Below are positions 51,001 to 54,000 of a DNA stretch of 64,000 bases, one piece after another. The stretch lies in the NCBI RefSeq assembly GCF_058153355.1, contig NZ_CM177019.1; one strand, given 5' to 3'. Numbering within the stretch: the first letter of the stretch is position 1; every line of letters begins with the position of its first letter. A program made the position numbers.

Positions 51001-54000
51001 TGGCGCTTTTATCTGGGCAGCTTATTGTACAGTAACGAATAAATACGCACGCGGATTTAATGGAATAACCGTTTTTGTCCTGCTAACGGGAGCAAGTCTG
51101 TGGGTTTACTATTTTCTCACGCCACAACCAGAAATGGTATTTAGCACACCCGTCATGATTAAACTCATCTCTGCGGCATTTACCTTAGGATTTGCTTACG
51201 CTGCGTGGAACGTTGGCATTTTACATGGCAACGTCACCATTATGGCAGTAGGTTCGTATTTTACGCCCGTACTTTCGTCGGCGCTTGCTGCGGTACTGCT
51301 TAGTGCTCCCCTATCGTTCTCATTCTGGCAAGGCGCACTGATGGTCTGCGGCGGTTCCCTGCTCTGCTGGCTGGCGACACATCGTGGATAAAATTATTGT
51401 CGGGTCATAGCACCCGGCAGTTAACCCGCTAAATTACGACAATAATAAAAAATAAATTTCAAATACCAGTAATTCACCTTATATCTCATTTCGACTTCGA
51501 TCACATATCGACAAATAATATTATTTCATCTAGTATTCTCATTGTTTTTAATCACCATTCTATTTTAAAAACAGTATGTCATTTGTAAATGACGCCGTTT
51601 AAAATTCGTTTAGAAAATAGGTTTAACGATAATTAAAAGGATACTGTTAAATGAAATTAAAAATAGTTGCGGTGGTTGTAACTGGTTTGTTAGCTGCGAA
51701 CGTAGCACATGCTGCCGAAGTATATAACAAGGATGGTAATAAACTCGACCTTTATGGCAAGGTTACCGCTCTACGTTATTTTACTGATGATAAGCGTGAC
51801 GATGGTGATAAAACTTATGCCCGTCTCGGTTTTAAAGGAGAAACGCAAATCAATGATCAAATGATTGGTTTTGGTCACTGGGAATATGATTTTAAAGGCT
51901 ATAACGATGAAGCCAACGGCTCGCGCGGCAACAAAACCCGCCTTGCCTATGCAGGTTTAAAAATTAGTGAATTTGGCTCTCTGGACTATGGTCGTAACTA
52001 CGGTGTCGGTTATGACATTGGTTCATGGACCGATATGTTGCCAGAATTTGGTGGCGATACCTGGAGCCAGAAAGATGTCTTCATGACATATCGTACCACT
52101 GGTGTGGCAACCTATCGCAACTACGATTTCTTTGGCTTAATTGAAGGGCTGAACTTTGCCGCACAATATCAAGGCAAAAATGAACGCTCTGATAACGCTC
52201 ATCTTTATGGTGCTGACTATACGCGTGCCAATGGTGACGGTTTCGGTATCTCCTCAACTTATGTTTATGATGGCTTTGGGATCGGTGCTGTGTATACCAA
52301 ATCTGATCGGACAAATGCGCAGGAAAGAGCAGCGGCTAATCCTCTCAATGCCTCCGGTAAGAATGCAGAACTGTGGGCAACAGGTATAAAATATGATGCC
52401 AACAACATTTACTTTGCAGCTAATTACGCTGAAACATTAAACATGACCACCTATGGTGATGGTTATATCTCTAACAAAGCACAAAGTTTCGAAGTGGTGG
52501 CCCAATATCAATTCGACTTCGGCTTGCGCCCATCACTCGCTTACCTGAAATCAAAAGGCAGAGATCTGGGGCGTTACGGCGATCAGGACATGATTGAGTA
52601 TATCGACGTTGGTGCAACGTATTTCTTCAACAAAAATATGTCGACCTATGTTGATTATAAAATCAACCTGATCGATGAAAGCGACTTTACCCGTGCCGTA
52701 GATATTCGCACCGATAACATCGTCGCAACGGGCATTACCTATCAGTTCTAACATCCTCTCCTGACCAGCCCTTCTCTGGGCTGGTTTTTGATTTAAGTGC
52801 TGCTGTATGACTCCTTAAGTAAAAATGAGCAATTTTTGATATTTCTGGTCATTCACCTCAATTAATATTCTTCCATACCCTCCGGGGACATCTTAGTATA
52901 ATATTTATTGATGAGTGATTATGACCAATATTAATACAGCTTGTGTAAAAAATAATGCCAGTTATCAATTAAATAACGCATTACCTAACAAAGAAACCAT
53001 CTCCAGCAATTTTTGTGAACAACTGGCACAATGGGGTGAGAAATCGCTTAATAATGGCGTAGAAAAAAGAACTATTCTAGAGCGAATTAATGAAGCTTAC
53101 AACTCAAACATGGAATCTCTTAATTTGTCATATCTTGATTTGAGTGAGTTACCGCCTATCCCCCCTACAGTTAAAACATTGAATTTGGAGGGGAATTGTC
53201 TAACTTTCCTTGACTTTACCGACAATGCTAGTCTTATCAATATCAACCTCACCTTGAATAATATTGAAACGATAACCTTTCCAAATGAATCAAAACTGGA
53301 AAATATTTATATCGATTGCAACAAGCTGGAAAGTTTAGATTTAAAAAATCAGCATTCATTGGTTAATCTGGAAGCGCAAAATAATAATCTAAAAGAAATT
53401 AATATTTCTGACAGTTATAAACTGAAATTTCTTAACCTTGATAATAACCATCTAACATCGCTGGATGTTTCTCAACAAGAATCTCTGATTGAGTTAAGTG
53501 CTTGTCACAATATGATCAATGATCTTAAATTACACTATCACCCCATGGTGAAAAAAATCGCTTTAAACGACAACCATATTGCAAATTTAAACGCTAAAAG
53601 CACTGCGATACTTGAATATTTAGACTTAAGTAACAACAATTTATTGCCAACAGATAACATTAATGAGTTAATATCATCAAAACATCTTTGGTATTTATCA
53701 GTTAACGGTATTAACAATGATCCTATTGCACAAATGCAGTACTGGAATGCAATAATGGATTTAGTTGATCATATTAATGAAGTGACCATTAAGATATCTT
53801 ATGATCTAGCAATTAAAAATATCGATACCAGTAATAAGCATCTTGTAGAAGTAAGCAAAAATACTGAAGGTGATAATAAAGAAAACAATGATTCAATGTC
53901 GATTCGTTACCGTTCAAAACCTTATTTCAGCAATTTAACTTTAACAGAACAAGAAACAACACTTTCTGAAGAAGAATTAAAAGCTATTCTGCCTATGTAT

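Follow-up and report, generated by a model that had tools for sequence, protein, structure and literature searches.

What does the yddG-narU interval of Escherichia coli encode where it is complete, and how did K-12 come to carry only a short reading frame, yddL, in its place? The question is raised by a 64,000-nucleotide stretch of NCBI RefSeq assembly GCF_058153355.1, contig NZ_CM177019.1 (here, the window), in which a first-pass annotation had noticed a full 366-aa porin of the OmpC/OmpF family with a signal peptide and a C-terminal Phe, and had taken the K-12 locus for a short fragment. We consider it very probable that the window gene encodes an intact general-diffusion porin of the classical trimeric type within the enterobacterial OmpC/OmpF/PhoE family, and that it is the orthologue, by position, of Salmonella OmpD in E. 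coli. The parts of the gene are as follows.

51637-51641, + strand: Shine-Dalgarno AAGGA, 9 nt before the porin ATG
51651-52751, + strand: porin open reading frame with ATG start, 366 aa, from the ORF listing of the window
51651-51713, + strand: Sec signal peptide, 21 aa, with an AHA/AE cleavage site, alignable to those of OmpC, OmpN and OmpD
51714-52751, + strand: mature 345-aa porin, a predicted 16-strand β-barrel, plus stop codon (Pfam Porin_1, PDB phmmer matches, residue mapping, AF2/Foldseek)
52041-52058, + strand: L3 constriction motif PEFGGD, residues 131-136 (residue mapping)
52763-52795, + strand: Rho-independent terminator, a 9-pair stem with 6 GC pairs (52763-52786) and then TTTGATTT

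The porin reading frame runs through its 366 codons with no frameshift or internal stop, and alignment with Salmonella OmpD and K-12 OmpC, OmpF, PhoE and OmpN reveals no truncation. Pfam PF00267 (Porin_1) matches residues 27-366 over positions 1-337 of a 337-position model (448.5 bits against a cutoff of 23.7); at an E value of 2.4e-134 this match lies far beyond chance. A phmmer search of the PDB returned OmpK36 and OmpC at E 1e-127 and OmpF at 2e-119. Residue 22 aligns to residue 1 of the crystallised OmpC and OmpK36 chains, and the signal peptide is followed by a mature N-terminus of the AE(V/I)YNKDGNK type that marks the family. The basic ladder K37/R58/R97/R148 (OmpF K16, R42, R82, R132) is conserved, as are the acidic L3 residues D128 and E132 (OmpF D113 and E117) and the PEFGG motif, and the chain ends in ...ITYQF with the terminal Phe as residue 366. 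An AF2 model of the protein matches OmpK36, OmpC and OmpF with TM scores of 0.80-0.88 (0.82-0.87 for OmpK36 and OmpC) and Foldseek E values of about 1e-40; its confidence is moderate (mean pLDDT 66, pTM 0.67, L3 below 50), so that structural support comes mainly from the ∼60% sequence identity to solved porins. The reading frame, the Porin_1 match and the residue alignment agree on the full-length porin of the first-pass annotation, with its signal peptide and C-terminal Phe. Disabling changes hidden in the ORF, which that annotation had allowed for, were looked for and none was found, given the full-length HMM match, the retained pore residues, the AF2 fold and low dN/dS. The intrinsic terminator begins 12 nt past the stop codon, and the gene is monocistronic, closed by its own terminator.

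The analysis establishes that the gene is intact, its family and orthology, the population states, the deletion junctions and the selection on it; expression, trimerisation and permeation we infer. As known for the family, the 21-aa signal peptide would direct Sec export, the C-terminal ...YQF β-signal would lead to insertion by BAM, and the mature 345-aa chain would form a 16-strand barrel. L3 (PEFGGD, D128, E132) would fold inward to face the basic ladder of K37, R58, R97 and R148, and the resulting electrostatic constriction would allow passive diffusion of small hydrophilic solutes. OmpC, OmpF and PhoE (PDB IDs: 2J1N, 2OMF/1OPF and 1PHO) and Klebsiella OmpK36 share the Pfam family, the fold and the constriction chemistry of the window porin, but they are only 59 to 62% identical to it, fall in a separate clade, lie at other loci and are expected to be regulated differently.

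The surroundings of the gene, and the segments of the locus that other genomes lack, are these.

50510-51391, + strand: yddG, aromatic amino-acid exporter of the DMT family (NCBIfam NF008676 equivalog, 470 bits against a cutoff of 194)
52915-54156, + strand: first leucine-rich repeat (LRR) gene, EspR-family-like, 33% GC (weak Pfam LRR matches)
54274-55520, + strand: second LRR gene (Pfam LRR_4 and LRR_8)
55848-57236, + strand: narU, which is conserved and anchors the locus downstream (annotation of other E. coli loci and alignment to K-12 narU)
51935-53475, no strand: segment missing in K-12-type genomes (deletion 1, ∼1.54 kb; blastn breakpoints)
51473-55661, no strand: 4.2-kb segment missing in 'clean deletion' genomes, e.g. 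ST95-32 (blastn against the window)

In K-12 MG1655, yddL (b1472) is annotated as a 291-bp CDS adjoining yddG. Its 96-aa product, about the first quarter of the porin, equals residues 1-93 of the window protein exactly and then ends in ...KNL, and the K-12 locus is the short fragment that the first-pass annotation had described. What K-12 retains is the promoter, the leader and the first 93-94 codons of the window gene, at 95.8% DNA identity; deletion 1 takes out porin codons 95-366 together with the 5' half of the first LRR gene. Read base by base, the left edge of the junction is GGCAA/CAAAACC, the right edge CAACAA/GAATCTC and the K-12 joint GGCAAGAATCTC, which is a CAA microhomology, and porin fragments in other genomes stop at the same place (query positions 532-535). 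The complete arrangement is represented in O157:H7 by z2239 of O-island 62, an ORF of 366 aa that is 98.9% identical to the window porin. Aligned to the O157 island, K-12 falls into three collinear segments (98.1, 97.9 and 95.8% identity), which means that two deletions occurred and created a chimeric yddK. Okeke et al. 2011 had noted the similarity between yddL and the 5' end of z2239, and they explained the K-12 state by 'insertion of yddK'; they did not name z2239 a porin, and the terms 'porin' and 'outer membrane' have 0 occurrences in their paper (PMC3079680). A 2023 paper treated yddL as an independent small protein with a four-strand barrel (PMC9976479). For K-12 biology the matter is settled: yddL is a deletion remnant and not such a protein. 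In K-12-type strains the retained promoter, leader and 5' coding region may, in addition, still be a decoy target of an Hfq-dependent sRNA.

In a set of 5,426 complete E. coli genomes, the porin gene is covered to at least 80% in 1,101 (∼20%), matched only in part in 3,177 (∼58%; with one exception, the rows sampled from these show the K-12-type fragment) and without a match in 1,148 (∼21%). In clean-deletion genomes, a class found in 12 of 60 evenly spaced rows, yddG abuts narU directly. Six carrier genomes were inspected, and the gene is intact in five and frameshifted in one (SCU-316). The occurrence of frameshifted copies in some carriers, together with the two losses, means that the porin is dispensable in much of the species. 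The carriers of an intact copy include O157:H7, and the phylogroup-D lineages examined by Okeke et al. 2011 are reported there to carry the intact gene as well (PMC3079680). Counted per sequence, the public contigs that encode exactly the window protein number 481, and each of two sister alleles is found on at least 1,000; a protein cluster contaminated with LepA proteins was set aside. PGAP annotates the gene in more than 1,000 genomes. The difference between intact and fragmentary copies, although real, is one already annotated, and already published in 2011. Between E. coli porin alleles dN/dS is 0.014 to 0.044 at dS of 0.08 to 0.18, ratios that place the alleles of carriers under strong purifying selection.

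On the relationship of the gene to other porins, the order and orientation fdnI-H-G (- strand), yddG (+ strand), porin (+ strand) ... narU, narZ are common to the window, Salmonella and Citrobacter koseri, and the upstream neighbour yddG, present in all three, anchors the synteny. The adjacency of yddG and ompD has also been reported in Enterobacter hormaechei (PMC11874173). Identity of the window porin is highest to the syntenic porin of C. koseri (77.9%) and to Salmonella OmpD (72-74.5%), with values of 67 to 69% for NmpC/Lc and 59 to 62% for K-12 OmpC, OmpF, PhoE and OmpN; the comparison with yddL, OmpC, OmpN and NmpC that the first-pass annotation had proposed thus returned residues 1-93, 59-62% and 67-69%. 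In a neighbour-joining tree built without bootstrap, the porin falls in the OmpD/NmpC clade and groups with the syntenic C. koseri gene, not with Lc/NmpC. The assignment to the OmpC/OmpF family therefore stands, but not as a generic OmpC/OmpF paralogue: synteny, identity and tree make the gene an orthologue of Salmonella OmpD.

Salmonella enterica OmpD (STM1572; NmpC in the LT2 annotation) has the same locus position and orientation as the window porin and shares with it the type of signal peptide (MKLK-VAV...), L3 and the basic ladder. Like the window gene, Salmonella ompD is monocistronic, with a terminator ∼40-50 nt past the stop in the two genes and a transcript end ∼50 nt past it in Salmonella, and its promoter-proximal region, with a ∼70-nt leader, can be aligned with that of the window (PMC2515195). 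The two loci differ in the yddG-porin spacer (259 bp in the window and 524 bp in Salmonella), in the 3' neighbours of the porin (LRR genes in place of GFA-smvA-smvR) and in the external loops of the protein.

The features of the spacer and of the start of the coding sequence that bear on regulation, largely predicted, are these.

51392-51650, + strand: regulatory region, 28.6% GC; its proximal ∼170 nt can be aligned with Salmonella and C. koseri
51501-51505, + strand: conserved TCACA block, a possible CRP half-site
51542-51547 and 51565-51570, + strand: putative promoter, -35 TTGTTT and -10 TTAAAA, by orthology
near 51577, + strand: predicted transcription start with a ∼74-nt 5' UTR, by orthology to Salmonella ompD
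51717-51728, + strand: codons 23-26 (GAAGTATATAAC), corresponding to the MicC target in Salmonella ompD, partly eroded (12-mer duplex)

The ∼170 nt before the porin contain blocks that are invariant across the window, Salmonella and C. koseri, with a different -35 element and a spacer half as long. The 5' end of Salmonella ompD mRNA lies near -70 (PMC2515195) and maps to about 51577 in the window. A consensus promoter scan returned generic AT-rich matches only (10 against 4.7 expected), the orthology-derived promoter not among them, and an Rfam scan of the whole window gave no RNA family near the porin. The MicC site, for which we take codons 23-26 of ompD to be the register described by Pfeiffer et al. 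2009, forms a 12-mer duplex with the MicC 5' end of -13.5 kcal/mol in Salmonella and C. koseri, -8.3 kcal/mol in the window and -4.3 kcal/mol in the K-12 and O157 alleles. We used this direct 12-mer comparison because global pairing (RNAduplex, first 30 nt of MicC against -75 to +150 of the porin mRNA) came to -12.0 kcal/mol, which is no stronger than that of shuffled MicC (mean -13.2), and missed the published Salmonella site, and is uninformative.

Codon usage serves as a proxy for the level of expression. On an ad hoc and crude codon index, whose reference is K-12 ompC and ompF only and which is circular for those two, the window porin scores 0.40, close to phoE (0.39) and below ompN (0.50), with ompD of Salmonella and C. 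koseri at 0.67 to 0.71. Salmonella OmpD is described as the major porin (PMC2515195, PMC4215857), a status that the index of 0.40 against 0.67 for Salmonella ompD makes unlikely for the window gene. Codon usage of the kind seen in the minor porins PhoE and OmpN, together with the AT-rich upstream region, leads us to expect conditional or low expression, and the gene to be a minor or conditionally expressed porin and not a third major one.

A rival reading holds that the porin gene is cryptic, intact yet effectively silent: H-NS-type silencing of the AT-rich region would keep it off, and in ordinary conditions it would add nothing to the outer membrane. The upstream region at 28.6% GC and the adjacent island at 33-34% GC would suit such silencing, as would the weak -35 element, a codon bias that resembles phoE and ompN but falls well short of Salmonella ompD, and the repeated loss of the porin within the species. 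Essentiality called by TraDIS alone is a frequent sign of DNA that is coated by H-NS and resists transposon insertion. K-12 yddL is recorded as 'essential only by TraDIS' (PMC5821084). However, with dS reaching 0.18, a dN/dS of 0.014-0.044 can be explained only if the protein is produced and useful in some niche, and the Shine-Dalgarno sequence, the terminator and the conserved promoter-proximal blocks have been kept. We regard silence as possible but on balance unlikely. A silent gene would make the porin comparable to the quiescent OmpN of K-12.

We also considered whether the porin could have arrived horizontally, either alongside the LRR genes of the AT-rich O-island 62 or as a porin of the phage-borne Lc/NmpC type. 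Its GC content is 43.4%, below the 48.5 to 49% of the flanking yddG and narU, it abuts LRR genes of 33% GC, and Okeke et al. proposed, from its GC content, that the island as a whole had been gained recently (PMC3079680). The porins of lambdoid prophages, Lc and NmpC (DLP12), belong to the same OmpD/NmpC subclade and are 67-69% identical to the window porin; they are, however, prophage-borne, with a longer N-terminal extension in database entries (385 aa), and the window gene is flanked by the core chromosomal genes fdnGHI, yddG, narU and narZ, with no phage genes beside it and no phage or mobility genes between fdnG and narU. Position, orientation and upstream region are those of Salmonella and C. 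koseri, and in the tree it is the syntenic C. koseri gene, not Lc/NmpC, that the porin joins. Furthermore, the first 81 bp of the yddG-porin spacer are kept in all E. coli genomes, including the clean-deletion class, a remnant that indicates loss and not an empty site. Import of the porin is therefore improbable.

The LRR genes alone replace the GFA-smvA-smvR block of other genera and are the likely import. The first is frameshifted at its 3' end relative to its nearest relatives (by tblastn a 417-aa relative covers 52921-54126 and then 54117-54209 in another frame). In the window an A-run shorter by 1 nt breaks the second into two parts, 54274-55014 (246 aa) and 55002-55520; the homologue of this second gene in O157 is annotated as the type III secretion system effector EspR1. 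In the history we favor, the porin is ancestral at the yddG-narU site; the 1.54-kb microhomology deletion produced yddL in K-12-type lineages, and the 4.2-kb deletion removed the whole gene in another fifth of genomes.

That the gene is ompC itself, in the form of an allele or another copy and regulated and used like OmpC, as its PGAP name ('ompC: porin OmpC'), the RefSeq annotation 'ompC' in every carrier genome listed and a score above cutoff for the NCBIfam 'porin OmpC' model NF007841 (496.5 bits against 484) would have it, is very improbable, since NF007841 is a subfamily model and not an equivalog and its cutoff is barely exceeded, identity to K-12 OmpC is only 61.7% against 74-78% to OmpD-type porins, the locus is yddG-narU and not micF-ompC-rcsD, and global MicC pairing is -26.5 kcal/mol for the ompC 5' UTR and -12.0 for the window (shuffled mean -13.2). 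Orthology to K-12 ompC is ruled out by the locus, the 61.7% identity and the synteny with Salmonella and C. koseri.

The first-pass observation was correct, and the gene is an ordinary one: an intact orthologue of Salmonella OmpD is present in about a fifth of sequenced E. coli under the RefSeq label 'OmpC'. A literature search found no functional work (expression, protein or channel) on this E. coli gene. The 'ompD' of a paper on ATCC 25922 was considered as the window gene and rejected, being annotated there as a phage-type 'porin protein LC'. The OmpD orthologue of Enterobacter hormaechei affects carbapenem resistance and virulence (PMC11874173), and OmpD affects infection in Salmonella (PMC4215857). 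Given these effects, the E. coli OmpD-type porin may be regarded as a reasonable but unproven candidate modifier of permeability. The porin repertoire sets the entry routes for β-lactams, fluoroquinolones, colicins and phages. We speculate, tentatively, that the E. coli OmpD orthologue is a general porin truly used in a niche-specific manner and that its three states (complete gene, K-12-type stump, clean deletion) track lineage and measurably alter antibiotic permeability or susceptibility to phages and colicins. If this reading were true, the near-invariant surface loops, at dS up to 0.18, would mean that the porin is expressed only under low phage and immune pressure.

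The gene at issue lies on the plus strand and had been read in the first-pass annotation as a complete 366-aa porin with a signal peptide and a C-terminal Phe, a description borne out by the ORF listing, by a whole-model family match and by alignments.

Porin gene and its signals
51542-51547, plus strand: candidate promoter -35 element, TTGTTT, placed by alignment with Salmonella
51565-51570, plus strand: candidate promoter -10 element, TTAAAA, placed likewise
9 nt 5' of the ATG, plus strand: Shine-Dalgarno sequence, AAGGA
51651-52751, plus strand: porin ORF, 366 codons, from the ATG at 51651 to the last base of the stop codon at 52751
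52763-52786, 12 nt past the porin stop: strong intrinsic terminator, 9-pair stem with 6 GC pairs, then a T-run

The product covers the whole Pfam Porin_1 model (positions 1-337 of 337, E 2.4e-134) and matches solved OmpK36 and OmpC chains (E ~1e-127); a signal peptide is present, residue 22 aligns with residue 1 of crystallised mature OmpK36 and OmpC, and the chain ends in ...TYQF. None of this would be expected of a chance ORF. Alignment with K-12 OmpF, OmpC, PhoE and OmpN, Salmonella OmpD and the Citrobacter koseri homologue equates OmpF K16, R42, R82 and R132 with K37, R58, R97 and R148, and OmpF D113 and E117 with D128 and E132, and places the loop-3 motif PEFGGD at residues 131-136; all residues that define the OmpF constriction are kept, as is the C-terminal Phe. 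An AlphaFold2 model of moderate confidence, built from an alignment of 26 sequences (mean pLDDT 66, pTM 0.67, loop 3 ill-defined), superposes on OmpK36, OmpC and OmpF with TM scores of 0.80-0.88. By homology the protein would be a passive, trimeric, water-filled channel, and by family inference its selectivity would be set by the acidic residues of L3 opposite the basic ladder.

Four other E. coli alleles differ from that of the window by 1-43 nucleotides and only 0-4 amino acids, and pairs with more than one nucleotide difference gave dN/dS of 0.014-0.044 at dS of 0.08-0.18. Over that dS range the proteins differ at 2-4 amino acids, so that the sequence, surface loops included, is near-invariant across lineages at dS up to 0.18; variation among the E. 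coli alleles is confined to residues 93, 180, 183 and 304. Among public contigs, 481 carry the identical protein and 1,000 or more carry each of two sister alleles. The comparison of alleles is the best evidence against a hidden disabling change and, with the retained constriction residues, answers the concern that the ORF might carry lesions not visible by eye.

In all of the RefSeq carrier genomes listed, PGAP labels the gene 'ompC: porin OmpC'. The NCBIfam 'porin OmpC' model, a subfamily model and not an equivalog, is only narrowly passed (496.5 bits; cutoff 484), and the label is ruled out by an identity to K-12 OmpC of 61.7% and by locus, the true K-12 ompC sitting elsewhere, beside micF and rcsD. 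The nearest named relative is Salmonella OmpD (72% by BLASTP, 74.5% over aligned columns). At the Salmonella ompD locus the order is fdnI, fdnH and fdnG on the minus strand, yddG and ompD on the plus strand, genes of the GFA, MFS and TetR families (the latter two being the smvA and smvR of the Salmonella literature), narU and narZ; C. koseri has an identical arrangement, with a porin 77.9% identical to ours, and the window reads fdnIHG, yddG, porin, two leucine-rich-repeat (LRR) genes, narU and narZ. A published deletion in E. hormaechei covers yddG and ompD, giving the same adjacency there (PMC11874173). In a neighbor-joining tree the window and other E. coli alleles join the C. koseri protein within an OmpD/NmpC/Lc clade, apart from OmpC/OmpN and from OmpF/PhoE, and ~170 nt 5' of the ATG can be aligned with Salmonella and C. 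koseri, invariant blocks included. We conclude from sequence and gene order that the porin is the positional orthologue of OmpD.

In the same neighborhood, fdnG is split into two ORFs, 47231-49642 and 49691-50278, because an in-frame TGA selenocysteine codon lies between them, as indicated by a SECIS element inside the gene (49638-49696, minus strand; Rfam RF01989, 84 bits).

In K-12 MG1655 the counterpart, yddL (b1472), adjoins yddG and is annotated as a 291-bp CDS whose 96-aa product is identical to porin residues 1-93 and ends in KNL-stop. Collinearity between K-12 and the window runs from fdnG to 51934 (95.8% identity) and resumes at 53476; read base by base, the left junction is GGCAA|CAAAACC, the right CAACAA|GAATCTC and the K-12 sequence GGCAAGAATCTC. 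These sequences mark the loss of ~1.54 kb at a CAA microhomology, a deletion which sets porin codon 94, out of frame, against the middle of LRR gene 1. The K-12 gene is thus the short fragment stated in the first-pass annotation and, with the window ORF intact, the first-pass reading stands. A second break (window ~53798 to 54468, with a 12 bp overlap in the alignments) fuses LRR gene 1 to LRR gene 2, and K-12 yddK is a chimera that joins the C-terminal half of the former to most of the latter (K-12 1545750-1544758; window 53476-53798 plus 54468 onward). K-12 matches a full-locus O157:H7 genome in three pieces (98.1%, 97.9% and 95.8% identity) and therefore derives from the full-length locus by two deletions. 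Okeke et al. (2011), who described the O157:H7 interval between yddG and narU as 'O-island 62' (z2239-z2242), suggested for K-12 a disruption 'by insertion of yddK' (PMC3079680); its origin through two deletions from an island like that of O157 rules this out. The yddL gene has been listed as a pseudogene in EcoGene, as cited in a 2023 paper that proposes for the 96-aa YddL a four-strand barrel in its own right, with a part in the osmotic response (PMC9976479); the descent of yddL as a deletion remnant argues against that proposal.

A census of 5,426 complete genomes, which counted as full length any match over 80% or more of the gene-sized query, resolved three states.

States of the porin locus in 5,426 complete genomes
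Full-length porin gene: 1,101 genomes
Partial match only: 3,177 genomes; every sampled row except one shows the K-12-type fragment, with its end at 51931-51934
No match to the porin query: 1,148 genomes

ATCC 8739 and 55989 carry the K-12-type fragment. A 6.7-kb yddG-narU query, with 60 rows sampled evenly down the ranking, returned the same classes: porin present in 13 (~6.7 kb in 11, shorter in two), K-12-type in 34 (4,497 bp; BL21 and the K-12 derivative 1FA among them) and yddG abutting narU in 12 (2,542 bp; e.g. ST95-32). The O157:H7 copy is intact at 366 aa, and that of the carrier SCU-316 is frameshifted. In about one-fifth of E. coli genomes a clean 4.2-kb deletion (window 51473-55661) has taken out the porin with its promoter and the two LRR genes, leaving, as in ST95-32, a 272-bp yddG-narU spacer with the short filler AAAGCCATT at the junction. 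Genomes without the porin and LRR genes still retain the initial 81 bp of the spacer between yddG and the porin, which points to a deletion and not to a site that was always empty. Across three regions (porin, yddG-narU and ddp operon; 51400-52900, 50510-57235 and 35101-40605) most complete E. coli genomes show ~96% identity to the window and only 14-18 of the 5,426 reach 99% or more, with strain 2017-02-2CC, from human faeces in Viet Nam, as the best match; the lineage of the window is rare and deep-branching.

From GC content, Okeke et al. suggested a recent acquisition of the entire island (PMC3079680). The LRR genes have 33-34% GC and the porin 43.4%. Between porin and narU, Salmonella (L003, 7233-9821) and C. 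koseri (L008, 7182-9809) carry GFA-family, 495-aa MFS-family and TetR-family genes, which in E. coli are replaced by the AT-rich LRR genes (window 52915-55520). Import of the LRR genes is plausible given this composition and replacement; the porin, whose position, orientation and upstream sequence are common to other genera, is ancestral at the locus.

The LRR genes (52915-54209 and 54274-55520), homologues of the O157 type III effector candidates EspR1/EspR2', both seem frameshifted relative to relatives in NZ_CM148325.1 and NZ_AP027764.1, which encode 417-419 aa and 416 aa. The frame of gene 1 changes just 3' of a poly-Ser tract (16 Ser, against 6 in the relative), and gene 2 is split near 55005 by an A-run 1 nt shorter; pseudogenisation, phase variation or homopolymer sequencing error could each be responsible.

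Salmonella ompD cDNA reads are reported to cluster between -70 and +19 and to end ~50 nt past the stop, at a terminator (PMC2515195). Mapped through the alignment, transcription in the window would start near 51577, and the transcript would be monocistronic. A large contribution to the outer membrane is doubtful on several grounds. Against a K-12 ompC and ompF reference, the codon index is 0.40 in the window and O157 alleles, like phoE (0.39) and ompN (0.50; aspC 0.47), and major-porin-like in Salmonella ompD (0.67) and the C. koseri gene (0.71). The upstream region has 28.6% GC. The MicC target, reportedly at codons 23-26 of Salmonella ompD (Pfeiffer et al. 2009), is weakened: in this register the 12-bp duplex scores -13.5 kcal/mol for both Salmonella and C. 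koseri, as against -8.3 for the window and -4.3 for the alleles of K-12 and O157, and OmpD regulation has therefore drifted in one layer at the least. H-NS-coated, transposon-refractory DNA typically gives the score 'essential only by TraDIS'. K-12 yddL has this score (PMC5821084), and we hypothesize that H-NS may bind here. The main rival on expression state, that the gene is intact but normally silent, fits the same codon and upstream features and is the less likely reading; purifying selection is strong, which implies that the protein is made somewhere.

The porin finding is correct and already known: over 1,000 complete genomes have this gene annotated, and the likeness of yddL to the 5' end of z2239, hence the fragment/full-length relationship, has been in print since 2011, in a paper that nowhere calls z2239 a porin (PMC3079680). 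Modest additions are the explicit OmpD orthology against the PGAP label, the exact deletion junctions, the origin of yddK as a chimera, a census by three states, and the contrast of selection with codon bias. The gene has lost codon bias in comparison with its Salmonella and Citrobacter orthologues while the surface loops stay near-invariant, and tight constraint in carriers coexists with at least two losses of the gene within E. coli. The window very probably holds a functional OmpD-type porin gene, and the best reading is that it would encode a conditionally expressed minor porin.
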